Source: a virus
Direction: 5' to 3' (one strand)
Length of the DNA stretch: 64,000 nt
IMG/VR virus record: IMGVR_UViG_3300029305_006397
Shown: piece by piece, positions 5,157-35,926 of the stretch
How the letters are laid out: the number at the start of each line of letters is the position of its first letter
Position numbering within the stretch: the first letter of the stretch is position 1
Notes under the pieces: model-generated
The model's input: only the letters and a program-made list of their open reading frames with translations
Told to the model about the DNA's origin: nothing
Databases searched by the model: none
Made by a program: the position numbers and the translations under genes

Positions 5157-5167
5157 TATTCGACTTG

Positions 5168-5194
5168 GGAGGGGCTTAGCCCCTCCTCTATTTT
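5168..5194 (+). terminator. intrinsic terminator after the tape measure gene
   Basis: GGAGGGGC-TTA-GCCCCTCC hairpin followed by TCTATTTT. Confidence 0.7.
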
Positions 5195-5207
5195 ATAGGT
5201 GAAAAAT

Positions 5208-5504
5208 ATGAATCGAAATAAGCGAACAGAGTTACTTCGAAAAAAGAATATTGAACTTACATCCCAGCTGGCAGAGCTTCATCAGAAACTGGATACGCAA
5301 TCAGATGCAAAACAATTAATTGCTAAACTGCAAGAACTTGAGCAGGAATGGATTAATGCTATTCAAGAGCTGAACAAGCGTAGAGATGCATACGACAATC
5401 TTATTGCAGATATGCAAGCAATAAAAAAAATAATGATTGAAACTGGATATAAGATTCATATTCCATGGTATAAAAAACTAATTATAAAACTTAAAAGCCA
5501 CTAA
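5208..5504 (+). CDS. hypothetical coiled-coil protein (98 aa)
   Basis: ATG at 5208 lies 5 nt after AGGTGA. The track's GTG at 5199 is part of that SD. Heptad-like L/Q/E/K sequence with no catalytic motif. Confidence 0.5.
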   Translation: MNRNKRTELLRKKNIELTSQLAELHQKLDTQSDAKQLIAKLQELEQEWINAIQELNKRRDAYDNLIADMQAIKKIMIETGYKIHIPWYKKLIIKLKSH

Positions 5505-5525
5505 ACGCAGATTGGAGGTGCGATT

Positions 5526-6320
5526 ATGAAGGCTTACGATTTTGAATACGACGGACTCAAGTTAAGCAGCTTTGGATACATGATTTGCAATTTTGGTTCA
5601 AATGGTTTGCAGACTGTATCTGTAGGATCGCAGATAACCTTCAATACTGTATCTATAATGAATGGAAGTCAATATCATTTAGCGAGTATAGAATATAAAG
5701 ACTGTCTGAAAACAACATTCCAGATTTGCAAAAATGGATGTGGTTCTGGAAATTTTGAAATGACAGCAGGTGAAGAAAGACTTTTATCGAGATGGTTGAA
5801 TCGTAATGAATTTAAAAAGTTTAAGATTCTGAATGCAGATTATATAGACGTTTATTTTGAAGGCAGTTTTAATATAAGCAGGTTGGAGTTTAATGGCATG
5901 GTATGCGGTTTTGAATTGGAATTGATAACAAATAGACCGTATGCTTTGCAAGAAACGAGAACTAAAACCATTTTCAACGTGAAGCCTAATACGGAGCATG
6001 TTATAAAGGATTACTCTGAAATTGAGGGTTTTATTTATCCCAAGACCGAAATTGAAATAAATGAAGCAGGCACACTTGAGATTTATAATGCATCTGAGGA
6101 TCGAACAACTGCAATTAGAGATTGTCTAGCCGGAGAAAAGATTATTATGAATTATCCGGTTATTACAACAAGTGCGCCTGGACATAAAATTCAAAATGAT
6201 TTTAATTGGAAATTCTTTAGGCTTTTTAATTCATTTAGGAATAGCGGAAATAAGATTACAATTTCTTTGCCATGCACAATGAAGTTATCTTATTCGCCTC
6301 CTGTAAGATTGAGTTTATAA
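5526..6320 (+). CDS. distal tail protein (Dit)-like / siphovirus tail component
   Basis: 264 aa, immediately downstream of the tape measure gene. The N-terminus (AYDFEYDGLKLSSFGYMI) resembles Sipho_tail-type Dit proteins. GGAGGTG SD. Confidence 0.6.
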   Translation: MKAYDFEYDGLKLSSFGYMICNFGSNGLQTVSVGSQITFNTVSIMNGSQYHLASIEYKDCLKTTFQICKNGCGSGNFEMTAGEERLLSRWLNRNEFKKFKILNADYIDVYFEGSFNISRLEFNGMVCGFELELITNRPYALQETRTKTIFNVKPNTEHVIKDYSEIEGFIYPKTEIEINEAGTLEIYNASEDRTTAIRDCLAGEKIIMNYPVITTSAPGHKIQNDFNWKFFRLFNSFRNSGNKITISLPCTMKLSYSPPVRLSL

Positions 6321-6332
6321 GGAGGGAAGGAT

Positions 6333-9300
6333 ATGGTACATGCACTTTGTTTTGACAACATGAATCATTTAGAACCGCCTACCTTATTATTAGCTAATCG
6401 CAATGGTTATGTCCTTGGTTTGCTGCAAGCCGAAAATATAAAAAGCAAAGGCAGTATGATAAGCGCCGATGAAATTTCTTTTACAGCACATAAGTTTATA
6501 GATGGCGTGAAGGATTGTCTTTGGGATAATATCGTTGATTATAAATTGGTATGGTATAAAGAAGTAGACGTATGGTTTGAGCTTAAAGTTGATATCGATG
6601 AAACAAATGAAACCATTAAAAATGTGGTCGGAACTCAACTTGAATATGCAGAGTTGGGGCAAATTAAGCTTTTTTCTATAGAAATAAATACTGAAGCAGA
6701 CATTGCCAGAGATGATTATGAAAAACCTACGGTTCTGTATGATCCAGATCACCCGGAGATTTCATTGCTTCACCGAATCGGTGAAAAGGCAAAGCATTAT
6801 GAAATCGCACATGTAGATACGACAATTAAAAATATACAGAGATCGTTTTCTTTTGATGATATTACAATTTTAGAATCACACCAGCAAATAGCAGAAGAAA
6901 TAGGATGCTTATTTGTATACAGTTCTTATTTAGATGAATATGGAAAACTGCGTCGAACATATTCGGTATATGATTTGCAGTCAAATTGCAGAAACCCGAA
7001 ATGTAACCATAGGGGCGAATTTACATCGAAATGTCCTAAATGTGGAGGCATAGATATTGACGAAGGATTCGGAGAGGATACCACAATATTTATTACTGCC
7101 AACGAATTAGCAGAAGAGGTTCGATTTTCTACCGATACGGATTCAGTAAAAAACTGTTTTAAGTTAGAAGCCGGAGATGAGTTGATGATGGCTGTGATTC
7201 GCAGCTGCAACCCAAATGGCACTGACTATCTGTGGCATATATCAAAAGCAATGAAAGAAGACATGTCGGATGATTTGGTAAACCGAATTGAAGAATATGA
7301 AGCGGAGTATTCAAAATATGAAACTCAAGAAATTTCTATTGATTCAGGAAAACTAAGCCGATACAATGGCTTAATTGAAAAGTATTCAAGAAAGAATACA
7401 GATCTTGAGGGTCTGCCGGAAAGAATTAGTGGATACGCCGCTATGACGGAAGCATATTTTAATACAATAGATTTTAAGTTGTATCTTGAATCTTCGCTTA
7501 TGCCTAGTATTGAAATGAGCGAAATAAAAGCTTCTGATGAAATTAAGAAATTAACTGCCAGCAATTTATCTCCTGTAGCTGTTCCAGATATATCAGTTAT
7601 TTCGAAGGCTAGTGCGGATAGCGCTGTTCTTTCAATGGCGAAAATACTTGTAAATTCAAGGTATAAAATAAGAATTATATCATCTGATGATTTAGTGTCG
7701 AAGGTCGGAGACGATGGTATAAAAATATGGAATGGCCGTTTTGCAATCACAAACTTTTCTGATGAGGACGATAATGCTGAGACCGAAGAAATTGAAGTTG
7801 AAATTAATGATGATTACGAGCAGTTTATAAAACAAAAGCTTGAACTAGCAATTCGAGACGAAGAAACCGATGATTTGAGTTTTTCAAGTTTATTCAAGCT
7901 GAATCATAATGATGAAAACGAACACGAGATTGATCCGAATACCGGAAGCATGGAATGTCAGTTTTGTAATGAGCTGACGAAATATTCTTTGAATCGATTG
8001 AAGGCATTTTATGATGCATGTCAGGCTTGTATTGACATTTTGATTGAACAAGGCATCGGCAATGAGGAATCTTGGTCTGGAAAAGAAGGTGAAGGGAATC
8101 TTTATCAGAGCCTTTATCTTCCGTACTATAATAAGCTAAATTGCATTGATAGAGAAATTAAAGTCAGAGAAACTGAAATCAAAACAATCACACAATTGCA
8201 ATCAGAAATTGAAGAAATACAAACTGTGATACATCAGGCTCTTAATTTCGAAGATTATTTAGGCAAAGATTTATGGTGTGAGTTTTGCGCTTATCGAAGA
8301 GAGGACAAGTATTCGAATGCAAACTATATTTCTGATGGCTTAAACAATTCAGAACTCTTTCAGAAGGGATTCGAATTTTGGGAAACTGCAAGAAATGAAA
8401 TTTATAAATCTGCTGAGTTACAACATTCAATTACCAGCTCTTTGAAAAATCTCCTTGGCAATAGCAAGTTTAAAGTTTTGCTCAATTCATTTATGCTTGG
8501 GAATTGGCTGCGTGTTGAATGCGATGACGGAATCTATAAATTGCGATTTCTTGAATACGAAATTGATCATGATTCTCCCGATAGTATCGCCGTTGAGTTT
8601 TCTGATGTGACAAAAATCAGAAATGGAATTAGCGATCAGCAATTTTTGATTTCTAAAATGGCTGCTGTTACAGGTTCGTATGGTGCGGTGCAGAGACAGG
8701 CAAAACAAGGTTCAGAAAGCAAAGGGATATTGGATAATTGGGTAGAAGACGGACTTGATGCGACAAATATAATGATCACTGGCGGTTCGAAACAACAAAC
8801 CCAAAAGTGGGATTCACACGGCATGTTATTTAGAGCTTATGACCCGATTACGGAGACATATGCTCCGGAGCAAACAAAGATTATCAATTCGACAATAGCT
8901 ATAACGAACGACAACTGGAAAACAACCAAGACTGCTATTGGACTTTTTAGCTATCGTGATCCATCATCAGGAGAATTAAAAAAAACTTATGGCATTAATG
9001 GCGAAACCATTGTAGGTAAGTTTTTACTTGGTGAAAATCTAAGCATGCAAAATTCTGATGGAAGTCTGGTTTTTAATGATAATGGGCTGATAATAACCAG
9101 TGTTACCGACGACGGCATCGGAACAATGGAATTTGGGCAAGATGGGTTAATTGTTCAGCGTGATAATAATATGATTAAAATCAGTCCTCAATCCAATGAA
9201 ATTATGGACATTAAGATTGGCGAAGAACATGTCTTTCTTGTTGATGACGATGGAAATTTGCGCATTAATGGTCATATTATGGCACGAAGTTTGGCATTGG

Positions 9301-9725
9301 GAAACGATGTTACTATTGATTCAAGCGTTGTTACTGGTTTGCATGAAGTCGCTTTTAGCGGAGATTATACAAAACTGGATAATTTGCCTAATTTAAAGCA
9401 AGTTGCAACCACTGGTGATTATAATGATTTATTGAACTTACCAACATTGTTTGACGGCAAATATTCAAGCTTAATTGGTGCGCCAAATCTAGCAAAGGTA
9501 GCTACTTCGGGAAGCTATAATGACTTGTTAAACCTGCCAAGTATTGCAGAAACAGTTGTCCAAAGCAATACAAGTAATGCCGTCAGCGGCAAAGCAGTAT
9601 ATGATTATGCCTTGCCGAAGAGTCTTGGAAGCGCTAATGCGAATAAAATTTTATATACCGACACAAATGGCAATGCATCATTTATTACAATAAGCAGCTT
9701 AAAAACATTGCTTGGAATTGAGTGA
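6333..9725 (+). CDS. tail-associated (Tal-like) minor structural protein / baseplate hub with fibre-like C-terminus
   Basis: 1,130 aa in the position after Dit. Internal 4-Cys ribbon (CRNPKCNHRGEFTSKCPKCGG). Four C-terminal repeats of the (S/T)G(D/S)Y(N/T)xLxNLP type that are common in phage fibres. Confidence 0.65.
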   Translation: MVHALCFDNMNHLEPPTLLLANRNGYVLGLLQAENIKSKGSMISADEISFTAHKFIDGVKDCLWDNIVDYKLVWYKEVDVWFELKVDIDETNETIKNVVGTQLEYAELGQIKLFSIEINTEADIARDDYEKPTVLYDPDHPEISLLHRIGEKAKHYEIAHVDTTIKNIQRSFSFDDITILESHQQIAEEIGCLFVYSSYLDEYGKLRRTYSVYDLQSNCRNPKCNHRGEFTSKCPKCGGIDIDEGFGEDTTIFITANELAEEVRFSTDTDSVKNCFKLEAGDELMMAVIRSCNPNGTDYLWHISKAMKEDMSDDLVNRIEEYEAEYSKYETQEISIDSGKLSRYNGLIEKYSRKNTDLEGLPERISGYAAMTEAYFNTIDFKLYLESSLMPSIEMSEIKASDEIKKLTASNLSPVAVPDISVISKASADSAVLSMAKILVNSRYKIRIISSDDLVSKVGDDGIKIWNGRFAITNFSDEDDNAETEEIEVEINDDYEQFIKQKLELAIRDEETDDLSFSSLFKLNHNDENEHEIDPNTGSMECQFCNELTKYSLNRLKAFYDACQACIDILIEQGIGNEESWSGKEGEGNLYQSLYLPYYNKLNCIDREIKVRETEIKTITQLQSEIEEIQTVIHQALNFEDYLGKDLWCEFCAYRREDKYSNANYISDGLNNSELFQKGFEFWETARNEIYKSAELQHSITSSLKNLLGNSKFKVLLNSFMLGNWLRVECDDGIYKLRFLEYEIDHDSPDSIAVEFSDVTKIRNGISDQQFLISKMAAVTGSYGAVQRQAKQGSESKGILDNWVEDGLDATNIMITGGSKQQTQKWDSHGMLFRAYDPITETYAPEQTKIINSTIAITNDNWKTTKTAIGLFSYRDPSSGELKKTYGINGETIVGKFLLGENLSMQNSDGSLVFNDNGLIITSVTDDGIGTMEFGQDGLIVQRDNNMIKISPQSNEIMDIKIGEEHVFLVDDDGNLRINGHIMARSLALGNDVTIDSSVVTGLHEVAFSGDYTKLDNLPNLKQVATTGDYNDLLNLPTLFDGKYSSLIGAPNLAKVATSGSYNDLLNLPSIAETVVQSNTSNAVSGKAVYDYALPKSLGSANANKILYTDTNGNASFITISSLKTLLGIE

Positions 9726-9738
9726 GCGAGGTAAAAAT

Positions 9739-9996
9739 ATGAATGAAGGTAAACCGCTTTCTATGTTGTGCGAAGAATTTAGAAACGCGATTGCAAATAC
9801 AATTAATAATTCTCAATTGCCAGCTTATATAATTGAGCCGATATTGAAAAACTATTGGAATGACGTAAGAGCAATTGCAAAGCAGCAATATGAAACTGAG
9901 AAAGCAAATTTTGAAAATCAAATTAGTATTAATACGAAATCAGATATGACGGGTTGTGAATCTCATGAGATATATGACGAAAGAAGAGTATATTGA
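9739..9996 (+). CDS. hypothetical protein (85 aa)
   Basis: ATG at 9739 is preceded by GAGG. The upstream in-frame extension overlaps the Tal stop. No motif recognised. Confidence 0.5.
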   Translation: MNEGKPLSMLCEEFRNAIANTINNSQLPAYIIEPILKNYWNDVRAIAKQQYETEKANFENQISINTKSDMTGCESHEIYDERRVY

Positions 9997-10345
9997 AAAA
10001 TTTAAGAATCTGCATGCGCGAAATGTGCAGATCATGCGAAGAAGGAAGCTTCGAGAAGAGAGGTTTAAACTCTTCCCTAAAATCAAATGGCCTAGCACCA
10101 GCAAACTTGTTTTGTGGGGTGTTTTTTTGATTTGTATTGAAATGCTTGCATTTTCGCAATATGCGATGATTGCGCTGGGTGACGCCAGCGCAATGTATGT
10201 GCTGCTTGGTATTCCTGCGGCATTGATACCTACATGCCTTGGATATTTTAGCAAGGCGAAGGCTGAAAACACAATCGGTGGAATTACATATGAAACTGTG
10301 ATTCGGCAAAATAAGACCGATTGCCCCGAAGAAGCCGTAGGATAA
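9956..10345 (+). CDS. two-TM membrane protein, holin candidate
   Basis: Two hydrophobic helices (LVLWGVFLICIEMLAFSQYAMI and MYVLLGIPAALIPTCLGYF) follow a basic N-terminus. The start is ambiguous (GTG 9956, ATG 9965 or ATG 9974). It lies just upstream of the lysin region. Confidence 0.5.
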   Translation: MNLMRYMTKEEYIEKFKNLHARNVQIMRRRKLREERFKLFPKIKWPSTSKLVLWGVFLICIEMLAFSQYAMIALGDASAMYVLLGIPAALIPTCLGYFSKAKAENTIGGITYETVIRQNKTDCPEEAVG

Positions 10346-10359
10346 CGGAGGGATAAAAT

Positions 10360-10767
10360 ATGGTGATTTTGAATGGCATTAAGAATTTTTTGCAGTTTGT
10401 AAACGATAACTGGACAATGATTGCGGCGATTGTTTTGCTTACATTGGCCCTGGCGAAAAAGATTATGAATTTCATGGGCAAGAGCAATGAAGAAAAGATT
10501 GCGATTGTAAAGAAGCAGATTCGTGAGTCCATGCTGAAATTTGTAACTGAAGCTGAAATTGATTATCAGGAATGGATGAGCGCTGGCAAGATTAAGCGCA
10601 GCCAGGTAATCAATTTGATTTACGAAAAGTATCCTGTGCTTTCAACAGTTGCGGATCAGGATGAACTGATTGCCTGGTTGGATGCAATGATTGATGAATC
10701 GCTTGCGATGATGCGCGAAATCTTCGAACAGAATGCAAAGGATACTGCGATAACGGAAGACGCATAA
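10360..10767 (+). CDS. holin, LL-H-family-like
   Basis: Single N-terminal TM (WTMIAAIVLLTLALA) followed by a helical tail (..GKIKRSQVINLIYEKY..LIAWLDAMIDESL) that resembles LL-H type holins. GGAGGG SD. Confidence 0.55.
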   Translation: MVILNGIKNFLQFVNDNWTMIAAIVLLTLALAKKIMNFMGKSNEEKIAIVKKQIRESMLKFVTEAEIDYQEWMSAGKIKRSQVINLIYEKYPVLSTVADQDELIAWLDAMIDESLAMMREIFEQNAKDTAITEDA

Positions 10768-10784
10768 ACCATAAACGAGTATAT

Positions 10785-10815
10785 GGGGAGGGCAAACTTT
10801 CCTCCCCTATTTCTT
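10785..10815 (+). terminator. intrinsic terminator
   Basis: GGGGAGGG / CCTCCCC stem followed by TATTTCTT. Confidence 0.7.
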
Positions 10816-10893
10816 ACAAGGTGTAGTTTAAAAAAGTGAATTTATTAATGAGGAAGAATTGCAATAGTGAAACGAGGGTTTCAGGCAGTTTCT

Positions 10894-10930
10894 AAAGGCA
10901 TCATATCATGTATGGATGCCTTTTAATTTA
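10894..10930 (+). terminator. second hairpin, terminator-like
   Basis: AAAGGCATC ..12 nt.. GATGCCTTT followed by T and AATTTATAT. It sits in an intergenic gap with no ORF. Confidence 0.45.
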
Positions 10931-10956
10931 TATGAAAGGCATGGTGTATATGCGAT

Positions 10957-11622
10957 ATGGGTTACTTTGAGTATTTGGGCTTGCCAGCAAAAGTAGGATT
11001 GGCGTTGGCAGCATTATTTTTAACCTCGCAGGTGGTTGGCGAAATATTAGAATTGAAGGGCAAAGTTGTTCCGGAGTTTTTAAAGCTGAGAAAAATGTAT
11101 AAGCGTAGAAAGTCCGAGAGAGAGGCGCTGGCAAAATTACCAGCTTTGATTGAGACATTTGAGCATGTGCCAGAAACACTAAAGGAAGTTAGATCATTAT
11201 TAAATGAGGTGAACCAGCATTATAGCAGTGATAACATTGCAAAGCGTGATTGTTGGATCAAGGAAGTAAATGAGCATATTAACGAAAGCGAACAGAAACG
11301 CGCCGCACAAGATGCATTAATGCGAGAGTTAGGCGAAAAGCTTGATAGGAATACCGAAATGACGCTTTCGATTTCTATAGAAAATAAGCGTAAGGAAATC
11401 ATTGATTTTGCGGCTTATGTGGCAGAAGAGAAGAATCCTGTAACCAAAGAACAATATACACGAATTTTTAAATGTCACAGAGAATATGAGGAAAGTATTT
11501 CAAGAAATGATCTTACAAACGGAGAAGTAGATATTGCAATTCGGATTATCAAAGAATCTTATGAGAATCATTTGAAGAATCATACTTTTATTGAAGATAT
11601 TCGTGGATACGATGTTCATTAA
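10957..11622 (+). CDS. N-terminally membrane-anchored protein of unknown function (lysis-cassette member by position)
   Basis: TM segment VGLALAALFLTSQVVG followed by a charged helical region. It lies directly upstream of the endolysin. Confidence 0.5.
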   Translation: MGYFEYLGLPAKVGLALAALFLTSQVVGEILELKGKVVPEFLKLRKMYKRRKSEREALAKLPALIETFEHVPETLKEVRSLLNEVNQHYSSDNIAKRDCWIKEVNEHINESEQKRAAQDALMRELGEKLDRNTEMTLSISIENKRKEIIDFAAYVAEEKNPVTKEQYTRIFKCHREYEESISRNDLTNGEVDIAIRIIKESYENHLKNHTFIEDIRGYDVH

Positions 11623-11664
11623 CGCTGGATTTCTTTTACAATTACATGGAAAGGAAGATATACG

Positions 11665-12660
11665 ATGGCAGTTAAAATTGGGAATGCATCAATTAGTGAA
11701 AATGGGTCGATTTCAGGCAAAGCTGGCGATCAGACTGGAAGAGAGGTCTATATTAAAAATTGGAAAACTCGTTCTGGAGGTTGGGTAACTCTTCGTTGTA
11801 AAAATGTAGCAATGAGAGAATACATCGCTGAAGCCATGGAAAAGGCATGTAAAAATGACGATATCGGATACGACCAGTACGATAATGATTCTCTTTGGGA
11901 TAACGTAAAAGACAAAGGATTTGATCCAAGTAAGACAACTAAAAAAGTTGAAACCGATTGCGCACGACTTGTTCGTGTATGTGTTCAGTATGCAGCTGTT
12001 AAAGTAGGATTGGACATTACTATTCCTGACTTTTATACTGCAACGCTTGTTTCAAAACTTATGTCTACTGGTTTGTTTGAGAAGATGAGTGCAAGCAAAT
12101 ATGGTTCTTCTAGCGCTCTGTTGGAGCGCGGAATGATCCAATGCTCGAACGGGAAAGGTCATACTTGGATTATTCTTTCAAATGGAGATAAGGTTGGCTC
12201 TACGACTGCGGCTCCCGGAAATGCATTGGAGTTTGGAGACAGGACTCTTGAAAAGGGAGACAAAGGCGATGACGTAAAAGAACTTCAGCAATATTTGATG
12301 AAGCTGGGCTATAAGTTGCCTAAGTACGGCGATGACGGAGATTTCGGCAGCGAAACATTGACAGCCGTTAAGCAGTTTCAAAAGGACAAGGGACTGGAAG
12401 TAGACGGTATTGTTGGTAAAAATACCACCGCTGCCCTGAAAGAATTGATTGGAACAAAGACGAAAAAGGTTGTTGTAACAGGCGGAAGGGTAAATGTGCG
12501 AAAAGGATATAACACAGATTATGATATTTTGTTTACCGCCAGTAAGAACGACGAATTTGTTTGGATTTCTACATCTACCCAAAATGGATGGCATGAGATC
12601 AAAACGAATAAGGGCGACGGTTGGATCAGCAATAAATATTCAAAAGTAATTGAAAAATAA
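11665..12660 (+). CDS. endolysin: Cys/His peptidoglycan hydrolase domain + PG_binding_1 + SH3-like domain
   Basis: Peptidoglycan-binding repeat (GDKGDDVKELQQYLMKLGY..DGDFGSETLTAVKQFQKDKGLEVDGIVG). SH3-like C-terminus (GRVNVRKGYN..NGWHEIKTNKGDGWIS). The N-terminal domain has candidate catalytic Cys (ETDCARLV) and His (KGHTWII). Confidence 0.85.
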   Translation: MAVKIGNASISENGSISGKAGDQTGREVYIKNWKTRSGGWVTLRCKNVAMREYIAEAMEKACKNDDIGYDQYDNDSLWDNVKDKGFDPSKTTKKVETDCARLVRVCVQYAAVKVGLDITIPDFYTATLVSKLMSTGLFEKMSASKYGSSSALLERGMIQCSNGKGHTWIILSNGDKVGSTTAAPGNALEFGDRTLEKGDKGDDVKELQQYLMKLGYKLPKYGDDGDFGSETLTAVKQFQKDKGLEVDGIVGKNTTAALKELIGTKTKKVVVTGGRVNVRKGYNTDYDILFTASKNDEFVWISTSTQNGWHEIKTNKGDGWISNKYSKVIEK

Positions 12661-12699
12661 TATTTAGATGCAAGATATAAAGAAAGGAGGATGAATGAC

Positions 12700-14016
12700 A
12701 TGGACTTAGCGATAATCAAACATATTAAAGTTGATTTTCACGATTCAAGATATATATCTGTTAATGCCAAACAATTTGACGAAGGTTCTCGTTATATTTT
12801 AGTTTCATGTTATAACCAAGGCAAATTTCATCGTTTGGATCAAATGTACAACATGGCGTTCATTAGGTATCGCAAACCAGATTTGAAAAATGTATTTAAC
12901 ATGTGTCAGATTAATGAGAATGGTGAAATCCTTGTTGAGCTCACGATGCAGATGCTGTCTGAACCAGGTGGATGTTACGCAGATTTAGTAATCGTTCGCA
13001 ACGAGCCCATTTCTCCTTCAAGCATTACGTTTAATAGCGGAGAATTGTTATCCAACGAAAATACACAAATTTTGTCTACTATGCTGATTTGTGTCAATTG
13101 TATTCAAAACGCTGTTGATAATAGTGAAATTGAATCTTCGGACGAATACAATGCCTTGAATGAATTGTTGATTAAGGCGACAACGGATTATTCTTATGTT
13201 ATGACTGCGTGCAAGATATCGGCTGAAAATGCATTAGCCTCTGAAGATGCAGCTGCTTTATCGGAAAATAAGGCCGCTATTTCAGAGCAAAACGCATATG
13301 ATTCAGAGGTAAAAGCCAAAGAATCTGAAATGAACGCTGATACTTCAGAGACAAATGCTCTGACTTATTCAAATAACGCCAAGATATCGGAGGAACATGC
13401 ATTGGCGTCCGAAACGCATGCCGCAGAATTTCAAGAAGCTGCGGAGACAAGTGCCAAAGAAGCAGATAATTCTGCTTCAATATCTATTGAAAATGCAAAA
13501 ATTGCGACGGATAAAGCCCTTGAAAGTAATGATAATGCCTTAATGGCAAAATCATATGCTGTCGGAAACGCAGGAATTAGAGTGGACGAGGACAACGACA
13601 ATGCCAGATATTATTTCCATCAAGCCAAGGCAATTAAAGAAGGCTTGGACGGGGCTTTTCTGGCTATGGGCACAATTGAATTTTCTCAATTGGATAGCGT
13701 TACATGTGAAACCGGATATGTATATCATATTGTAGATGCATTCGTTACGGATGAAAGATTTAAGCAAGGCGCAGGACTTTCCTTTGGTGGTGGCACAAAC
13801 GTTTATTATACGGCGGATGGCTATTGGGATTGCTTTGTCGGTGAATCTACAGTAGTTGTTGATGATGGCATTGGCCTGATTGTTACTGACGATGGAGAAG
13901 GAAATGTGACTATTACCGGATATTCTGACTATTTATCAAGCAGCAGAATTATTGAGGAACTTAAAGCAAGGATAGAAACTTTAGAAAATCAGCTTGCATC
14001 TGATGCAAGCAATTAA
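12700..14016 (+). CDS. baseplate upper protein (BppU_N-like) / fibre protein
   Basis: The N-terminal domain resembles BppU_N (VNAKQFDEGSRYILVSCYNQG..ENGEILVELTMQMLSEPGGCYADLVIV). It is followed by an A/E/S-rich coiled segment with repeated (S/T)E.NA units. ATG 12700 has better SD spacing than ATG 12691. Confidence 0.65.
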   Translation: MDLAIIKHIKVDFHDSRYISVNAKQFDEGSRYILVSCYNQGKFHRLDQMYNMAFIRYRKPDLKNVFNMCQINENGEILVELTMQMLSEPGGCYADLVIVRNEPISPSSITFNSGELLSNENTQILSTMLICVNCIQNAVDNSEIESSDEYNALNELLIKATTDYSYVMTACKISAENALASEDAAALSENKAAISEQNAYDSEVKAKESEMNADTSETNALTYSNNAKISEEHALASETHAAEFQEAAETSAKEADNSASISIENAKIATDKALESNDNALMAKSYAVGNAGIRVDEDNDNARYYFHQAKAIKEGLDGAFLAMGTIEFSQLDSVTCETGYVYHIVDAFVTDERFKQGAGLSFGGGTNVYYTADGYWDCFVGESTVVVDDGIGLIVTDDGEGNVTITGYSDYLSSSRIIEELKARIETLENQLASDASN

Positions 14017-14030
14017 ATGGAGGTGATTAT

Positions 14031-14726
14031 ATGTACGTCATATTGGCTCATGATGATAATACTTTGTCAGCTCCTGTTAAACAACGCATTGTGCAACGGA
14101 GCAAGCTGGTTGATACTATGTGGTTTTTGGTTAAGCCTGTATACAATGGACATGATCTTTCATCTGCTACGGTATTACTTGAATACTTAAAACCAACGAG
14201 TAAAAAATATGAAACCGAAGTGCTCAGACTGGCAAAGGATAAATACGAGGATCATTTAAAATATGTCTTGCCTGTTGATACCAAACTGACAGATGAGGCT
14301 GGAAGTTTAGAGTTGCAACTTAGTTTTTTGTATGTGGACATTGATCCAGATGGCAATCCTGTGCAAAAAGTGCGCAAAACAGCTCCAGCGCTGAAAGTGG
14401 AAATTGTTCCAATTAGTGCTTGGAGCGACATTATTCCAGATGGTGCATTAAGCGTTATTGATCAAAGGCTGCTTAAAGTAGATGCGCAAATTAAGGCGCT
14501 TGACGATATGAATACCATTTTGATTGACGGCAAGGCAGATGATTTGACTTACGACAATAATAAGTTACAGTTGTTGGCAAATGGAAAGCGTATTGGCAGC
14601 GCGGTGAATATTGCATCTGGAGATGGTTGCGGTAACGAGGATGGAGTTCCCGTGATTGACTTTAGTACCGTAAAGGATGAAGCCCCAGATGAGTTGGAGC
14701 ACGTTGATAACGTGGTCGAATTTTAA
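14031..14726 (+). CDS. putative baseplate/fibre-associated structural protein
   Basis: 231 aa with GGAGGTG SD. The N-terminal half is loosely BppU_N-like (..TDEAGSLELQLSFLYVD..). Placed between two fibre genes. Confidence 0.5.
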   Translation: MYVILAHDDNTLSAPVKQRIVQRSKLVDTMWFLVKPVYNGHDLSSATVLLEYLKPTSKKYETEVLRLAKDKYEDHLKYVLPVDTKLTDEAGSLELQLSFLYVDIDPDGNPVQKVRKTAPALKVEIVPISAWSDIIPDGALSVIDQRLLKVDAQIKALDDMNTILIDGKADDLTYDNNKLQLLANGKRIGSAVNIASGDGCGNEDGVPVIDFSTVKDEAPDELEHVDNVVEF

Positions 14727-14736
14727 TAATTTCTAA

Positions 14737-14770
14737 AAAAGAGGACGAAGCATGCCTCTTTTTATTTCGT
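14737..14770 (+). terminator. intrinsic terminator
   Basis: AAAAGAGG ..10 nt.. CCTCTTTT followed by TTATTT. The track's ATG at 14752 lies inside this hairpin. Confidence 0.6.
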
Positions 14771-14790
14771 TAGAAGGAGGATGGATATTC

Positions 14791-17700
14791 ATGGCTTTAT
14801 CTTTTGAAGATTCATTAAAAAAAGCTTTGGAGGAAAGCAGAACAGAGAATGCAGGAATAGCTGTTGCATCATTTGAGCCGGACAATTATATGGTTGCTTC
14901 TGCTGATGTTGGAGAAGAACTTGCTGCGATTCCTGATACAATGGAAGAAACCAGTGGCATGATAGCGGCATATGACGGCTGGATGAAGCCAAACAATGCT
15001 TCGTTCTATACATATTATAATGACGAATACTACGACGATGATTATTCAATTGTAGATGATAAAAAGAACATCGAACTTAGTTCGGAACAGATTAATCTTA
15101 CACAAGAAAATAATTCGCAGTATATACCATTTCAAATTCCGCGATTCTATGACGGATACGATTTAACTACCACTGAGATTTCGATATATTGGGTTAATAA
15201 GAATCAAAGCGGATGCAGTTCAATCCCTGTTGATGTTTTTTATAATTCGGAACATATAAGGTTTGCATGGTTGATTGACAATAAAGTAACTGCATTAGCA
15301 GGTAAAATTGAGTTTGAGATTCAAGCCAGCGGAACTAACTCTCAGGGTTTGCCTTATTTGTGGAAAACAAAGAAAAACGATGGTATCAACGTAATTCAGG
15401 CATTAGAAATCAAGAAGTTTATAGAACCGGACGAAACATGGCAGGAAAGTTTTATTCGAAGGATTTCTTCTCAGGTCGGGATGGTTTCAAGCGCCAAAGA
15501 CGAAGCGGTTGCTGCTGCAAACGAAGCAAAAAAAATAGTCACTGAATTACAGAATGGCATTGACAACGAAGTTCAAAAAGCTATCGGCGATAATTACTAT
15601 ACCAAGGACGAAGTAGATACAGCAATAGCAAATGCAGATGTTGATTTGACAGGTTACGCTACGGAAGAATTTGTTCGAGAACAAATTGGCTCCATTCCTG
15701 CGCCAGATTTAAGTTCTTATGCATTGAAGAATGAATTGCCTCAAGTTCCTGAGAATATATCTGCATTTCATAATGACGCTGGTTATTTAACTGAACATCA
15801 GAGTCTGGAAGCATATGCGTTGAAATCACAGATTCCAAGCATTGAAGGATTGGCTTCGGAAGCATTTGTTCAGGAACAAATTGAAAATGCTGATCTTGAC
15901 AGTTATTATAAAAAAGAAGAAACATATAATCGAGATGAAATCGATGAAAAAGTTACAAATGTAAGTATCGATCTGACTGGTTATGCGACGGAAAAATATG
16001 TGGACGATAAGGTTGCACCGATTTCTTCCTCTGTTTCTACAAATGCAGATAATATTTCTTCTTTGAGTACAACCGTTGGTGGCCTACAAAAGACTGTTGG
16101 TTCTATTGACACTTCGCCTCGTCTCACTTACGATGTGGCTTACAATGACACAGATGATTCAGATGTAGGTGAAAACGTATTTGTTTTCTATGAAATTGAA
16201 AACGAAGGCACAGAAAAGGAAGTCAAGGAAGCAAAGAAGAAATTCACAATTGTTGGCGGCAGTGGCGGTTCGGCTACGAGCAGCACATTGAAAATTGGTT
16301 ATGTGACTACATCTCCCCTTGTTGTCACTACAAACGATAATGCGATTATCTCATACACCTTTTCCGGCACGGATTCTTCCGGCGATGCTGTGCCAGAAGG
16401 AATTGCGACATGGAAGGTTGCTGGCAGAATCGTTGCAACAAATACTGCAATTGCTGGCGAAAACTCTTTTGATGTTACGGATTATCTTTCTATCGGCACC
16501 CAGAAAGTTAATTTGTCTATTGTTGACGAAGCTGGCAGCTTGGTAACTAAAACATGGACTGTGCAAAAGATCGATGTAAGGTTGGAATCTACTTTCAATG
16601 ATGCATTAACTTATCCTATTGGAACAGTATCTTTTGATTATACTCCGTATGGCGCTATTTCCAAGGATATCCATTTTGTTCTTGATGGAACAGAAATAGG
16701 CTTGGTTACTACTACTGCATCTGGCATCCCGATGGCATATGAGCTTCCAGAGCAAGAACATGGTTCTCATTTGTTAGAAGTTTATATGACTGCTGAAATC
16801 AATGGAAATTCGATTGAATCAAATCATATAGTAAAAGATATTCTTTGGTATGACGGAGTTACTTCTGCTGTAATTGGTTCAATATATCAAGAGTTTACTG
16901 CAAGACAGTATGACTCCACAAATATTAAGGCAACAATATATGATCCTGCAACTGAAACGCCGACCGTAGAAATTGCAGTCGATGGGACTATTGTTTCAAC
17001 TCAGACATTAACTGAAAGTACGCTGACATATTCCTACAAAACAGATATTGTCGGAAAGCATACGATTACGATTAAATGCGGAGAGGTTGTCAAAACCTTA
17101 ATTGGTACGATTATAGAATTAGATATTGATGTCTCTCCTGTTACTGCTGGCTTAGTTTTTGACTTTAACCCTACTGGAAAATCAAATAATGATTCGGATA
17201 GAATTTGGAACAATGATACTGTTTCCATGTATGTATCTGATAATTTCGACTGGATCAATGGCGGATATCAAATCGACGAAAATGGAGATCAATACTTCTG
17301 CATTAAGACCGGAACCAGTGCGACGATTGATTACAAGCTGTTTGAAGATGATGCGAAAAAGAACGGTAAGGAAATGAAGCTGATCTTCAAGACCACAAAT
17401 GTGCGAAGTTCAGACGCCATTTTTCTGCATTGTATGGATAATACCACTGGTACAAATCATATTGGCATTGAGATGGGAGTGCATGAAGCGACCATTTATG
17501 GACAAGCGGGCAGCTTGTCTCTCCCCTATTCTGAAAATGATATTATTGAGTTTGAGTTTAATATCAGCAAGGATACGGAAGCAATTCCGATTGTGATGGG
17601 CTATGAAGACGGCGTATCAACCAGAAATATGGTATATGATGAATCGCACAGCTTTACGCAGAATACTCCGCAGATGATTACACTGGGTTCAGACAAGTGC

Positions 17701-20700
17701 GACCTACATATTTATAGGATGAAAGTGTACCGCACTTCTTTAACGGACAGAGGCATTTTAAACAACTTTATCGCCGATGCGCGAAATGCTGAAGAAATGA
17801 TTAATCGTCACAATCGAAACCAGATTTATGATGAGAACAGTCAGCTTGATCCTGATGTATTGGCGGAAAAGTGTCCCCATTTGAGAGTGTACAAACTTTC
17901 TGCGCCTTATTTCACTAATAATAAGTCAGACAAAGTTCCTGGAACAACCATTCAGCAGATTTATAAGAACGGCGATCCAACGCTGGATAACTGGACATGC
18001 TATGATTGTATGCACAGTGGTCAGGGTACAAGCTCTAATAACTATGGTGCTGCCGGACGCAATTTGGATTTTATTATGAATAAGTCAGGCGTAGATGGCA
18101 TAGACCCCTATTTTATTATGGGTGACGGCAGCAGGGCAACGGAAATTACTATGAGCAGGGCCTCTGTGCCCGTTGCATATTTGAACGCTAAGGTCAATAT
18201 TGCGTCAAGCAATAATCTGACGAACGCAATGCTGGCAAACAGATACAATACTTATAATCCTTATAAGAGGCCATTTATTCGCGAAGAAGGTGTGGACACC
18301 AGCTTTATTAAGGATACTATGGAGTTCCACAACTGTGTAATTTTCATTAAAGAAACAGATGCCGATTTGAGTACACACAGAGAATTTGCAGATAACAACT
18401 GGCATTTCTACGCTATCGGAAATATCGGAGATAGCAAGAAGACGGATGACACTCGTCTGACTGATATGGATGATAAGTACGAATGTTGTGTTGAGATCAT
18501 GGACGTAGAGCTTCCGCTTTCTGATTTCCCCGCAGATACTATGTATGACGCTATGGGATACAATATTGACGATACGACTGGCGAAAAGATTTATATCTGG
18601 GCAAAGGATGAAAATTTAGGTATTTTGCATGAGAAGATTGATGGAGAATATGTGCCAACGCAAGATGAACATGTGGACTTAAATAAGACATATTATGTAG
18701 ATATTCTGGAACACGATGATTTCAGCGAAGATTTTACATATGGTTGGCGCTATCTTTATGAAGGCGATGATGATGAAGAAAATGTAGAAGTATTTGATTA
18801 TTGCAAGCAGAAGTGGATTGAGGCATATAGATTCATAACAACTTCGACCGATGAAGAGTTTAAGGCTCACATCGGTGATTATTTTGTTTTGGACTCTGCG
18901 CTCTATTATTACTTGTTCACTACACGATATTGCATGCCAGATAATCGTGCCAAGAATAGCTTTTGGCATTACGGTAAGACTGGTGAAATGGATACGGAAG
19001 GTAATCCGATTCGCAAGTGGGATTTGAGTTGGGGATACGATATGGATACCAGCTTGGGTCTTAACAACTATGGCAAGCAGGTATATCGCTATGGCCTGGA
19101 AGATACAGATGTGGATGAAAAGGGCGAAGAGGTATTCCGTGAAAGTGGCAGTACATTCTTCTGTCGAATCCGTGATCTATTCCCCGCAGAGCTGAAAGCA
19201 ATGTACAATACACTGGAATCTGCAAATGCTTGGCATGCGGAAAGTTTCCTGGCTCAATGCGACGCATGGCAAGATGAGTTCCCAGAAGAATTATGGAGAG
19301 TTGATATTGAGCGCAAATATATTCGCACATATACTACAAGCTTTATCAATGGCAAGCCTGATTCTCAATTCCTGGTGAATATGGCAAACGGCAAAATGAA
19401 ATATCACAGACGACAATGGGAACGTAGTCAGGAAAAATATATGGCGTCTAAATATCAGAGCAGCATTGCAAGCAGCGACAATGCTGTTTTGCGCTGTACT
19501 GTTCCGACTGGAGATTTAGCAGTTCAACCTAATTACAGATTAAAGCTTATCCCCTATGCATACATGTATTTGAACGTGAAATATGGTACGCAGAATCCGA
19601 TTCAGGTAAAAGCTGTGCCGAACGTAGAATACGAGATTCCATTTACAGGGACAAGCGCGGACATCATTGATGTTTACAGCGCATCGCTGATTAAATCTCT
19701 GGGCGATCTCTCCACATGTTATCCTGCAACCGTAGACACAAGCCGTGCAAGTAAGCTGACAGAACTGATTATTGGTAACGATACTGCAGGATATGATAAT
19801 CCCAGCATGACCACATTGACCATGGGTGCAAATTATTTACTGGAAACATTGAATGTTGAGAATGTATCTGGCCTTGCACAATCTTTGAATTTGAGTGCGT
19901 TGAATAATTTGAAAGAATTGTATGCGGACGGATCGGGAGTCAGCGGTGTTACATTTGCAGATGGCGGACTGATTGAAACTGCTGAACTTCCGGCAATTAG
20001 TTCGATGACGGCAAAAAATTTGACGTATTTATCAGACCTGAAAATTGATTCATTTAGTAATTTGACTACCTTAGTAATCGAAAACTGCAATACGATTGAT
20101 CTACTGAATATTTTTGAGACGGCGGCAAATTTGAATCGTGTACGCATTACTGGAATCGATTGGACTTTGAGCAGCACTGATTTGCTAGATCGGATTTATT
20201 CAATGTCCGGTATTGACAAGGATGGCTATAATACTATGAAAGCAGTGTTAGCTGGAAAGGTACATATCCCGGTAATCCGGCAGCAACAATTACGCGAATA
20301 CCAAGAAGCATGGAATGATCTTGAAATTGTATACGATACATTGATTGAGCAATTTGCGGTCACATTTACAAATGACGATGGAACTATTTTAGAGGTTCAG
20401 TACGTTGATAAAGGATCGGATGCTATTGATCCTTCAACAAGAGAAAATGATCCCCTTATTCCAAACAAACAGAGCTCTATAAGTCATGATTATACGTTTG
20501 CCGGATGGGATTCTGAATTGACTCAAATTTTTGCAGATCGAATGGTGATTGCTACTTATTCTTCTTCTTTAAGGAGTTATACAATTAAGTATGTTTCCAA
20601 GGGTACGGTTATGCAGGAAAGCGTTGGCTTGTATGGTGAAAACGTACCGTATGCAGGCAGCACTCCTATTTATACATTAGAGGAGTCAGCATATGTATAC

Positions 20701-22011
20701 CATTTATTTAATCGTTGGGACAAGAGTGGCTTTATTGATGGAGATAAAGTTGTAAATGCAATTTTTGACAAATTTGAATATACCACAAGTTCTTTTGTTG
20801 GTAAAGAATTGAAGGATTTGACTCCTGTAGAGATTTATGCCATGAATAAATTAGGATTGGCTGAAAGTATCGTACAGGATAAGGATGAATTTTCTTTTAC
20901 CATTGGAAACGATGTAGACTATGACGATATTGAGTCCGAATTGATTATATCAGAAAAGACTGTATTTGATGGAACAAATCATTTTGATACGGGAATAAAA
21001 TTGTTCGATGAAGATAGAGATTTTGTACTTGTTATCGATTACGAATTTTTGAGTGGGAATACAACCAACGCCGTTCTCGCACAATGCTTCCAAGCGAATG
21101 GTACGAATGGATTTAAATTGTGGTATAATTCAAATTCTGATTATACCGGGGCAAGATTTACCTGGGGTACGACATCCCATAATATTGCAATCACGAATAA
21201 ACGAGAATTGGTAGTTATCAGGCATAAAAAGGGAGAGAATAACCTGATAATTTATAATTCTAATCTGGATGGAGATACTCTTACAACAGTAAATCTTGAA
21301 AGAACCAGATCAACACTTGGAGACAGTACGTTGGTATTTGGCTGCGCAAAAGCTGATGATGGTATTTATGAAAACTATGGTATTGGTAACATCAACTGGT
21401 GCAAAGTATGGTATAAAGACCTTGGAGAGTCAGTTTGCAGAAATCTTGCAATTTGGACACATGAAAGAATTACACTTGAAGCGTGTGGATTTAGAAAATA
21501 CTATTTAACTGAAAACGCTTCTAAAAGATGTTCGTTCAGCTTATTGGCCTCTCACTTATTAAATCGTAATAAAAAATGGAATATATCAAACAGTAATGCG
21601 GGAGGTTGGGCAGACTCTGCATTGAATGCGTCGTTAAATGGAAGGCTGTATAACGCTATTCCAGAACAGATTCGCTCTTTAATCAAACAGGTGAAAGTCC
21701 CGTATCAGCTTGGATCAAAATCGGTTGATATTGAAACGACAGATTGCTATATCACTGTTCCCGCCTGTATAGAAGTTGATTCTACAATGAATACTGAGCC
21801 ATATAGCAATGAAGGAACAGCTATTTCCTATTTGACAACTAATGAATCCAGAATACGAGCATACTTTGATGGAGATGATGCTAGATATTGGCTACGCTCT
21901 CCAAATGCCGGATATGTTAATTATGTTTATTGCGTTAACGCGGATGGATCATTGTATGGATTTGCGAATCCTTATTCTGAATATGGAGTATTAATTGAGA
22001 TTTCATTTTAA
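14791..22011 (+). CDS. giant multidomain tail fibre/adhesin (about 2,400 aa) with CotH-like, LRR, LamG-like and Listeria-Bacteroides-type repeat regions
   Basis: One uninterrupted ORF. ATG 14791 follows GGAGG. Domains read by eye, in order: BppU_N-like N-terminus; DLTGYATE(E/K) coil repeats; Ig-like segments; two ConA/LamG-like segments; a CotH-like core ([37 protein letters not shown]); LRRs (19.7-20.2 kb); two repeats ending F(A/N)(G/R)WD; and a C-terminal YWLRSP domain. Confidence 0.8.
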   Translation: [2406 protein letters not shown]

Positions 22012-27018: not shown

Positions 27019-27450
27019 ATGGCTGAGAAAACAATGAAAACGCTTACATTCAATGATTTAAAATATGAAATTGTTGATTCAGAAGCAAGAATAAAAATAG
27101 AAGAAATGCAAGAAGATCGGAGCAAGTTAATCGACGCTACTTTATCTCAATCTGAAAAGGCAGCTGATGCAAAAGTAGTAGGTGATACTCTTGCTGAAAA
27201 AGTACCTGTTACTCGAACAATTAATGGAAAAAAATTAAATGAAGACATTGAACTTTCCGCATCTGATATAGGTGCGTTATCAAGTGATGATATAGATAAA
27301 ACATTACTTATTGAGGGTTCTCCGGCAGATGCGAAAGTTACCGGAGAAAAAATAAGTGATATAGAAACTGAGCTTTCAGAAATTACGATTGATGAAATCA
27401 ACGAAATTGTAGGAAACACTTTGTATTCAGGAGATATGGAGGTGTTATAA
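27019..27450 (+). CDS. fibre adaptor-like protein (paralog of 29953-30306)
   Basis: 143 aa with AGAGGTG SD. Two ADAK(V)xG motifs. The C-terminus IDEINEIVGNTLYSGDMEVL is shared with the 29953-30306 protein. Its stop overlaps the next ATG (TAATG). Confidence 0.55.
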   Translation: MAEKTMKTLTFNDLKYEIVDSEARIKIEEMQEDRSKLIDATLSQSEKAADAKVVGDTLAEKVPVTRTINGKKLNEDIELSASDIGALSSDDIDKTLLIEGSPADAKVTGEKISDIETELSEITIDEINEIVGNTLYSGDMEVL

Positions 27451-28598
27451 TGGCTGTTTTAAAACGGAATGGACTTGAGCACTTATGGATGCAAGTTGTT
27501 CAAAAAATTGAGAACGCTATCTCAAATATTAATTATAAAGATGTCGGCGCAGCTCCGGATCAGCATGAGCATTCTTATTTAGGCATTGAAACAATTAATT
27601 ATAATTTGCCAGAAGGCACATGGAGAGATATTGCTTATGGCAATGGCGTATATGTTGCAATTGGAGATGGGCTTAAAGTAGCATATAGTTATGATTGTGT
27701 CACTTGGAATATTGTTGACGTTTCCGGATTGCTCAACAATCTCGATACGGTATCAACTGCATTATATGTAGTTTGGGGAAATGACAGGTTTGTGATCCAG
27801 ATTTATTATAGTGATCAAATATTATATAGTTCTGATGGTATTGAATGGCATGCTGCTTCCTTACCATCTTTTGAATACTGGCATGGTATAGCTTATGGCA
27901 ATGGAAGATTTGTGGTAGTTTCTCATGGCAGTATGGGAAGTAAAGTAGCTGCTTATAGTGATGACGCCATCACATGGACACCGACAGTATTGTCTACTTC
28001 TGCGCTTTGGAGCCAAATGACATTTGGAAATGGAACATTTGTCGCTGCTGCCACTAATTTGGGATACATTAATTACAGTACAGACAATGGTGTAACATGG
28101 AATGCAAGCAATTTACCTGATGAATGTTATTGTGCTAATATTGCCTTTGGGAATGGCGTATTTGTTGCAATCGATCACTCCTCCGGGAACACAGGTGTTT
28201 ATAGTAATGACGGTAGTAATTGGACAAAGGTTGAATTGCCTGTGTCTGCGAAATGGGAATTTATTTTATATAATGGAAACAAATTTTTAGCCGCGTCATC
28301 TGACGCTCATTTTATTTACAGTAGTGATGGAATAACATGGATTGAAGGCTCGGTTTTAAATTTTGCTTGGAGGAATGGAACAAGCGACAATCATAAAACC
28401 TGGATGATTTCTGAAAACGGAGTAATATCAAACAGTGAGGATGGCGTTGAATGGGCAATCGAAACTCCTTTTTTAATGCAAGATCATGAAGATTCATCGC
28501 AAACTTTGAAAGCTATTATTGGTAATCCATATCAATATGGAACAACTCTCCCCGAAACGGCTTCCGAAGGAGAATTGTTTTTTTTGTTAAATAGCTAG
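27450..28598 (+). CDS. receptor-binding protein candidate, BNR/Asp-box beta-propeller (about 7 blades)
   Basis: Repeated W..(I/M)(A/T)(Y/F)GNG.FV(A/V) strands alternate with S.DG..W Asp-box-like motifs (YSSDGIEW, YSDDAITW, YSTDNGVTW, YSNDGSNW, YSSDGITW, NSEDGVEW). Confidence 0.6.
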   Translation: MAVLKRNGLEHLWMQVVQKIENAISNINYKDVGAAPDQHEHSYLGIETINYNLPEGTWRDIAYGNGVYVAIGDGLKVAYSYDCVTWNIVDVSGLLNNLDTVSTALYVVWGNDRFVIQIYYSDQILYSSDGIEWHAASLPSFEYWHGIAYGNGRFVVVSHGSMGSKVAAYSDDAITWTPTVLSTSALWSQMTFGNGTFVAAATNLGYINYSTDNGVTWNASNLPDECYCANIAFGNGVFVAIDHSSGNTGVYSNDGSNWTKVELPVSAKWEFILYNGNKFLAASSDAHFIYSSDGITWIEGSVLNFAWRNGTSDNHKTWMISENGVISNSEDGVEWAIETPFLMQDHEDSSQTLKAIIGNPYQYGTTLPETASEGELFFLLNS

Positions 28599-35850: not shown

Positions 35851-35926
35851 TGGTACACCTTCAGGGGCTCGAACCCTGGACACCCTGATTAAGAGTCAGG
35901 TGCTCTACCAACTGAGCTAAAGGTGC
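35851..35926 (-). tRNA. tRNA-Lys: tRNA-Lys (anticodon CUU), 76 nt with encoded CCA
   Basis: The minus-strand sequence GCACCTT-TA-GCTC-AGTTGGTA-GAGC-A-CCTGA-CTCTTAA-TCAGG-GTGTC-CAGGG-TTCGAGC-CCCTG-AAGGTGT-ACCA folds as a cloverleaf. The anticodon CTT is at plus coordinates 35891-35893. Confidence 0.9.

Follow-up and report, generated by a model that had tools for sequence, protein, structure and literature searches.

The 64,000-nucleotide (nt) stretch of viral DNA analysed here (IMG/VR virus record IMGVR_UViG_3300029305_006397; hereafter the window) carries on its + strand a giant open reading frame (ORF) at 14791..22011, and we propose that its product, 2,406 amino acids (aa) followed by a TAA stop, is a long tail fibre, or receptor-binding protein, with a catalytically competent CotH-like domain that would act in virion assembly, a reading to which we assign a probability of about 0.55. 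The protein is one of thousands in a large family that has already been noticed and is functionally uncharacterised; what is new here is the near-universal retention of the catalytic-type residues, the observation that constraint along the protein is strongest in the core, and the targeting of the conserved motifs of this core by probable introns in relatives.

The gene lies in a single open frame (14752..22011) on the + strand, as do the parts of the fibre and the upstream tail genes given below, and this frame is uninterrupted, as had been predicted from the letters alone. The true start is the ATG at 14791, which is preceded by the Shine-Dalgarno sequence GAAGGAGG and gives a product beginning with MALSFE, the consensus of the homologues. 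Collinear full-length homologues of 2,387-2,444 aa occur in five loci (L004, L021, L032, L038 and L007), and a frameshift artefact is therefore unlikely. The original prediction, which had described a giant tail adhesin built from several modules around a CotH-like core, quoted a series of motifs that were all found where it had placed them, and its description is supported by the fold match and the motif conservation presented below.

The assignment of the protein as a tail fibre is suggested by synteny and by an N-terminal shaft resembling that of a solved fibre. The giant ORF stands downstream of a tape measure and distal tail proteins, and in Hankyphage and phage NatCom_3357 the genes likewise run from the tape measure through hub/Dit and a large tail protein to the giant ORF. 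The shaft (15436..16125, aa 216-445) was delimited by profile match and by its DLTGYATEEFV / YYTKDEVD-type repeats; a profile of the N-terminal 1,030 aa matches the 'L-shaped tail fiber' 8hqz chain d with E=5.5e-8 at positions 217-417, to which the likeness is limited, the match being without the CotH or lectin core. The same profile also weakly matches reovirus sigma-1, and one homologue matches the phage tail repeat PF12789.

The CotH-like domain, an atypical kinase fold with large insertions relative to bacterial CotH, occupies 17878..19425 (aa ~1030-1545) and is followed by its helical end and a small beta-sandwich (19426..19710, aa 1546-1640), as judged from the secondary structure of the model. 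An AlphaFold2 (AF2) model of aa 1030-1640, built on the family alignment, reached a mean predicted local distance difference test (pLDDT) of 80.3 and a predicted template modelling (pTM) score of 0.83. When the model was compared with the PDB by Foldseek, 5jd9 and 5jda, the Bacillus cereus CotH kinase, were the only significant matches (E=1.4e-8, probability 1.00), with a TM score of 0.69 normalised to CotH. Since no other PDB fold was matched significantly, we take the model to confirm a CotH-like fold in the core. The Pfam family PF08757 was matched at E<=0.01 by 8 of the 26 aligned family members, three of them above its cutoff (P0086, 31.4 bits; P0007, 25.1 bits; P0106, 24.9 bits) and 44-50% identical to the window. 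The central block, from the immunoglobulin (Ig)-like domains through CotH, is the most conserved part of the protein, at 75-80% identity.

In Bacillus subtilis CotH two aspartates are essential, as either D228Q or D251A inactivates the protein (PMC7821199). The 5JD9 sequence was recovered through a PDB search and used as the CotH reference; it has one essential aspartate in NFD-GFVH-N and the other, 23 residues away, in PW-D-YD-ATWG. In the window protein the catalytic-loop motif D1384-N-R-A-K-N1389 (D-x4-N; 18940..18957) is the proposed equivalent of CotH D-GFVH-N, with its Asp in the place of D228, and Y1416-D-M-D-T-S-L-G1423 (19036..19059) is the equivalent of CotH W-D-Y-D-A-T-W-G, with its first Asp in the place of D251, so that D-x4-N and aromatic-D-x-D-x-(S/T)-x-G follow each other in the same order as in bacterial CotH. 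The equivalence of D1384 and D228 is probable, given the D-x4-N pattern and a gap-free extension of the default hhalign alignment. A broader MAFFT alignment places D1417 and D1419 on the CotH D-Y-D, whereas hhalign moves the first Asp of D-x-D by two residues onto a variable position, a minor ambiguity of register. Two further motifs of the domain are the N-lobe motif HSGQGTSSNNYGAAGRN (18013..18063, aa 1075-1091) and the invariant motif FYAIGNIGDSKK (18406..18441, aa 1206-1217).

Inspection of the catalytic residues, as had been proposed from the sequence, found the proposed equivalents of the essential aspartates present; in the family alignment D1384, N1385, K1388, N1389, H1393, Y1416, D1417 and D1419 are invariant where covered, and position 1415 is variable. 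The motifs are also present in 130 of 141 divergent representatives drawn from an exhaustive core-profile search, 128 with the strict pattern and two as full-length variants (DNWAKN and DNVVKN); the remaining 11 are short (557-1500 aa) and were taken as fragments. They read DQRAKN...YDGDTQMG in Hankyphage, DSRAKN...YDFDTAIG in phage NatCom_3357 and DNLGKN...YDVDSLYG in Bacillus phage G gp353, compared with DNRAKN...YDMDTSLG in the window.

At E<=1e-3 the core-profile search matched 3,086 cluster representatives (clustering at 50% identity), of which 1,394 remain at E<=1e-30; among the matches listed the median length is 2,321 aa and the maximum 3,975 aa, with most proteins between 2,000 and 4,000 aa. 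In the BFVD viral structure library about 20 phage proteins have a CotH-like fold, several of them already annotated as CotH, and these fold matches include phage G gp353 and proteins of crAss-like phages. A tblastn search against annotated phages matched 22 Bacteroides phage records, among which BK010646.1 (Hankyphage) was the one looked at. Wu et al. 2018 (PMC5758913) noted that some targets of diversity-generating retroelements (DGRs) measure about 2000 aa and carry motifs of CotH and Laminin_G_3, and Benler et al. 2021 described phage CotH domains fused to hypervariable lectins as unstudied (PMC8008677); a literature search found no experimental work on phage CotH-like fibres. Giant fibres with a CotH core are thus abundant in gut viromes (~3,000 clusters at 50% identity), including the DGR-diversified fibre of the widespread Bacteroides Hankyphage, and the expectation that a CotH module on a phage tail would be unusual is contradicted by the number of cluster representatives, by the BFVD fold matches, by the Hankyphage homologue and by the earlier mention in the literature.

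One of the closest known counterparts is the DGR target or 'tail fibre' of Hankyphage (Bacteroides phage p00, BK010646.1), also a giant at 2,245 aa and positioned, as in the window, after the tape measure, baseplate hub and minor tail protein. The two proteins are homologous over aa 556-1102 and 1349-1826 with 24-28% identity and share the catalytic motifs, but their N-terminal 550 aa are unrelated. Whereas the Hankyphage C-terminus is a DGR-diversified C-type lectin with variable and template (VR/TR) repeats and an adjoining reverse transcriptase, the window has no TR/VR repeats and its protein ends in a ConA-like lectin and a DUF6273 domain; the hosts differ as well, Bacteroides for Hankyphage and, presumably, Clostridia for the window phage. 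The Hankyphage target was described as without similarity to any characterised protein (PMC6199706) and is now named tail fibre (PMC12135933). Category f1 of the DGR targets of Wu et al. 2018 (PMC5758913), which probably includes Hankyphage-type proteins, has the size class and the weak motif pair of the window protein but takes a DGR and a CLec3 variable region as its defining features, and the window has neither.

Bacterial CotH (5JD9/5JDA, B. subtilis CotH, PF08757) shares the atypical kinase fold and, as proposed for the window protein, is part of a large protein assembly. The window domain, however, is ~515 aa long with large insertions, compared with 358 aa for bacterial CotH, and sits within a 2,406-aa protein whose substrates, unlike those of bacterial CotH, cannot be CotB or CotG. 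Among phages, Bacillus phage G gp353 (2,055 aa) is an annotated CotH-like giant that shares the motifs, and the fold is also found in entries of uncultured Siphoviridae and Myoviridae ('CotH kinase protein', 'Spore coat protein H kinase fold') and in the crAss-like phage proteins cr52_1 ('Internalin-like'), cr124_1 and cr272_1. This set gave fold matches with E=1e-7 to 1e-16 at 13-22% identity; its members are about 1,000 aa or more, several add LRR or lectin-type domains (LRR, leucine-rich repeat), their flanking domains are unlike those of the window protein, and they are experimentally uncharacterised.

A split ORF was not found in the window but is found in many relatives, where it reflects a probable intron and not an error. 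In relative L001, where the stretch of exon 2 that was compared shows 96% identity, gene calling splits the gene into proteins of 1,437, 283 and 984 aa. Ten loci (L001, L006, L027, L039-L043, L051 and L062) carry an insert exactly at D1419|T1420, within the YD-x-D|T motif, a site that is empty in the window (nt 19047|19048). The L001 insert spans 8871-10003, and in the nine loci with measured boundaries the inserts are 1,127-1,210 nt long; the ORF that they contain has the GIY-YIG and NUMOD1 domains of a homing endonuclease. In a P1 helix the intron sequence GUCCAU(G/A)U pairs with the exon end A(C/U)AUGGAU, with U.G at the splice site itself and covarying bases at position -7 (C-G, U-A, U.G). 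All inserts at D1419 terminate in ...AGUAACAGAUUG, with a conserved final G, and their 3' part has a conserved fold with 7 compensatory pairs. Splicing of L001 in silico restores a stop-free protein of 2,418 aa. The Rfam Intron_gpI covariance model recognised neither L001 8600-10300 nor the 3' part taken without the ORF. On these sequence features the D1419 insert is a probable group I intron. An intein was rejected, as the exons are in differing frames in several loci, and two genes split by a free-standing endonuclease are unlikely, as the invariant YD-x-D|T motif is itself interrupted by the break; exon 1 extends 2 codons beyond the break, and the only start of exon 2 is the terminal TTG of the intron, at which the 984-aa 'gene' of L001 begins.

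Locus L030 has two further inserts within the CotH-like domain, at about 1379-2274 and about 2659-3718, placed after Q1078 (HSGQ|GTSS) and after H1205 (NWH|FYAIGNIGDSKK), respectively; the window is empty at both sites (18024|18025 and 18405|18406). The second insert has an intron core as in the D1419 intron and its own matching P1, and in the first the 5' splice site would be C, not U. By eye, the ORFs in both inserts look as if they start with NUMOD4-like sequence. The three inserts sit in those motifs of the CotH-like domain that are conserved best, and insertion at such motifs is typical of sequence under strong functional constraint.

These interruptions bear on annotation. In the database clusters P0020-P0102 and P0121-P0240, dozens of proteins of ~1,000 aa begin at aa 1420, and other clusters of about 1,050-1,240 or 1,400-1,440 aa end at the intron sites; many database proteins of these three size classes are exon fragments called as genes. 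In another relative, L003, the region 7724-15169 forms one frame with seven in-frame TAG codons and no other stops, and the public gene calls are fragmented, which suggests an amber-recoded relative phage. Intron-split and amber-recoded copies stand in public databases as separate genes of ~1,000-1,400 aa.

In the mechanism that we propose, the N-terminal domain and the repeat-rich shaft would anchor the fibre to the tail tip, with an N-terminus that co-evolves with each tail, and the conserved centre, composed of the Ig-like domains, a beta-sandwich, the CotH-like domain and a further sandwich, would serve a function independent of the host. The distal exchangeable modules (LRR, two beta modules, lectin and DUF6273) would bind host-surface or mucus glycans and set specificity, a position that in the Hankyphage homologue is taken by the DGR-diversified C-type lectin. 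The CotH-like domain is predicted not to be a relic but to bind a nucleotide with a metal ion and to transfer a phosphoryl group, which is most likely because the catalytic-loop Asp-x4-Asn and the Mg-binding Asp-x-Asp are kept. ATP is available only inside the cell, and action at virion assembly is therefore most likely; the domain would act in the cytoplasm on the fibre itself or on neighbouring tail proteins and then remain as a structural part of the particle. CotH acts on spore-coat proteins, which offers an analogy for such a role in fibre assembly. The analysis shows the ORF, the fold, the conservation of the motifs, the synteny, the lectin and DUF6273 domains and the size of the family; from these we infer a trimeric fibre, the binding roles of its modules, and the catalytic competence, substrate and timing of its CotH-like domain.

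Several observations weigh against this proposal. The window segment scores 16.6 bits (E=0.006) with PF08757, below the cutoff of 23.8 bits, and in a whole-protein Pfam scan DUF6273 was the only match, the weak CotH match needing scans of segments. On Pfam scores the window protein is an outlier, and the HMMER comparison put forward in the original prediction, positive in three relatives, literally gives no significant CotH hit for the window itself, an outcome overridden by the fold test. The core is about 10% identical to 5JD9, phmmer and profile searches of the PDB with the core returned no match, and the default hhalign alignment of the core with 5JD9 is weak (47 columns, E=0.048), the relaxed alignment being collinear with low confidence. 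The relaxed hhalign and broader MAFFT alignments place the catalytic loop elsewhere, so that its register is method-dependent and only the D-x-D motif aligns consistently with CotH across methods. Moreover, once outside the cell a virion-borne kinase is cut off from ATP, no substrate of it is known, and a role in structure or ligand binding alone would also agree with the retention of the core in phages whose hosts are Gram-positive as well as Gram-negative. In favour of such proteins being part of virions, mass spectrometry of Hankyphage particle preparations (PMC12135933, S6 Table) picked up the two large tail proteins encoded after the baseplate hub, although this was polyethylene glycol-precipitated material, the protein naming in the table is ambiguous and the phage is not that of the window.

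Part of this evidence would suit a protein that is an adhesin only, a reading that we hold to be possible if rather unlikely, in which the CotH-like domain is a silent scaffold or a ligand pocket that could accept, for instance, a surface polymer that is anionic or phosphorylated, and its Asp and Asn residues serve metal-mediated binding instead of phosphotransfer. The lack of ATP outside the cell and the abundance of binding modules (lectin, probable LRR and DUF6273) speak for it; so do the Mucorales CotH proteins, which are host-cell ligands (PMC9973265), and the phage loop DNRAKN, which is unlike the DGFVHN of bacterial CotH. It is harder to reconcile with a full motif set that is kept almost universally in a family diverged to about 25% identity, and with a core that stays constant across host types while the distal modules vary. 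Pseudo-enzymes, in general, usually lose their catalytic residues. The same residues could also belong to an enzyme that acts at the host envelope on adsorption, transferring or cleaving phosphate-linked groups of wall teichoic acid, capsule or another glycopolymer, which would make the fibre a non-depolymerase enzymatic receptor-binding protein. Sugar kinases exist in the kinase-like superfamily (e.g. Fam20B, xylose kinase; PMC5865150), the fibre bears glycan-binding modules, and the close relative L001 encodes a protein with GDPD (glycerophosphodiester phosphodiesterase) and Big_2 domains a few genes downstream. Such an enzyme is nevertheless improbable in our view, as its energy donor is absent outside the cell and the core is conserved among Bacteroides, Clostridia and Bacillus phages with differing envelopes; we know of no CotH-family member with an envelope-acting activity of this kind.

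It would be very surprising if the protein were not a tail fibre at all and served as a head or neck decoration, or as a non-virion late protein that phosphorylates cytoplasmic host or phage targets. The DUF6273 region does match a PHROG labelled 'Hoc-like head decoration', but the gene lies within the tail module in three unrelated phages, the shaft matches a solved tail fibre, and one of the two large proteins found in the Hankyphage particle preparations is the homologue.

A fibre whose CotH-like domain works during assembly thus remains the reading that we prefer. The broader claim, that the domain is an active virion-borne phosphotransferase directed at tail or fibre proteins, in assembly or activation, or at the host envelope on contact, is put forward tentatively and is doubtful on present sequence evidence. 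If true, phage receptor-binding proteins would gain their first enzymatic module of this type, the same activity would be expected in gut phages by the thousand, Hankyphage and some crAss-like phages among them, and essential chemistry would explain why homing-endonuclease introns cluster on three catalytic-type motifs. An active domain would add a new class of chemistry to phage receptor-binding proteins, beyond depolymerases and esterases. Residue retention, the constraint on the core and intron targeting make an enzymatic role a concrete, testable hypothesis for which the residues to mutate are named.

Turning to the remaining domains of the fibre, the N-terminal domain (14791..15435, aa 1-215) is the least conserved part of the protein, at about 41% identity (33-41% is the range for the N-terminus), and from its position is presumed to attach to the tail tip or baseplate. 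Beyond the shaft, about three Ig-like beta-sandwich domains (16168..17100, aa 460-770) were recognised from sub-threshold matches to FlgD_ig, Big_7 and NusG_II. This region is homologous to aa 408-985 of the Hankyphage target, and in PHROGs aa 460-1150 match phrog_14959 and phrog_24896, two families without known function. A beta-rich segment follows (17113..17805, aa 775-1005), which had been read as the first of two ConA/LamG-like segments; it has no Pfam or PDB match, and the one hhalign alignment with the second segment is shifted in register. The second segment fared better. It is a ConA-like/CBM40-like lectin beta-sandwich (20887..21510, aa ~2033-2240) whose fold is confirmed by the AF2 model of the C-terminal 787 aa (pLDDT 85.5) and Foldseek. 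Here the best match is the CBM40 of the Ruminococcus gnavus sialidase 6er3 (E=1e-5, TM 0.60), in a set of CBM40s and legume lectins with E=1e-5 to 5e-4; since Foldseek gives no aligned query residues, the match was assigned to aa ~2033-2240 from a 14-strand beta block. The likeness to the CBM40 sialic-acid-binding modules (R. gnavus IT-sialidase, 6ER3) is at 12-14% identity and legume lectins match nearly as well, so no sugar specificity follows. Laminin_G had no Pfam match in the window protein, in either the whole-protein or the segment scans.

Between the CotH-like domain and the lectin lie a probable LRR solenoid (19711..20310, aa ~1641-1840) and two beta-rich modules ending in YTFAGWD and LFNRWD (20338..20790, aa 1850-2000). 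The predicted LRRs are plausible, as the AF2 model has periodic short strands and the LxxLxxxN spacing is compatible with LRR, but the best Pfam score of 17.0 bits is below the cutoff of 27.9; a PDB profile search weakly matched the LRR protein DIA2 (E=0.1). The two modules had been taken for Listeria-Bacteroides (Flg_new, PF09479) repeats, an identification that we could not sustain: one copy scores 14.9 bits against a cutoff of 27, none of 22 homologues matches the model, and the YTFAGWD and LFNRWD repeats have no detectable similarity to each other. The distal tip (21565..21990, aa 2259-2400) is a DUF6273 domain (PF19789, phrog_10993), scoring 58.1 bits (E=1.3e-15) against a cutoff of 23.5, in agreement with the predicted YWLRSP-type domain; its model is matched by 17 of 22 homologues, and it is the most variable C-terminal module (54% mean identity). 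Relatives P0103 and P0109 have the CotH C-lobe in common with the window protein, but their C-terminal half carries BspA-type LRR_5/LRR_8 modules and lacks DUF6273, an architecture that we read as modular exchange of the distal binding end.

The tail module upstream of the fibre gene spans 12..14726. It contains a tape-measure-like ORF (12-5156), a DUF6558 phage tail protein (5526-6320), a 1,130-aa tail protein (6333-9725), a protein with endolysin-like (ELLD), PG_binding_1 and SH3_3 domains (11665-12660) and a tail-fibre-like ORF (12691-14016). The product of 11665-12660 may be a tail-associated lysin rather than the endolysin of a lysis cassette. A promoter/terminator scan flanking the giant ORF found nothing exceeding expectation. 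No direct repeat of at least 40 nt in the 64-kb window involves the giant ORF (no search was aimed at a reverse transcriptase), and a DGR was rejected for the window, where TR/VR repeats are absent. A megablast search of the INPHARED phages returned no match. Relatives were found in Clostridia, Lachnospiraceae and Ruminococcus assemblies, two isolate genomes included, on contigs often of ~147-160 kb, which suggests that the window derives from a large phage of gut or rumen Clostridia; relatives in bins of other phyla are probably mis-binned phage contigs.

Downstream of the fibre gene, a 42-nt direct repeat family with a TTTGGAAATGG core occurs at window positions 28006-28047, 31180-31221 and 31300-31341 and is common to two ORFs, 27450-28598 and 30747-32168, whose products are presumably further fibre-like proteins in which it gives rise to a recurring peptide motif. 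In L001 the GDPD and Big_2 protein is encoded at 14039-15532 and may be a virion enzyme that degrades teichoic acid. A single tRNA-Lys(CTT) is present in the window at 35851-35926 on the - strand, just past the switch from + strand structural genes to - strand genes, and a change in the sign of the GC skew coincides with this switch (about 34.6 kb).

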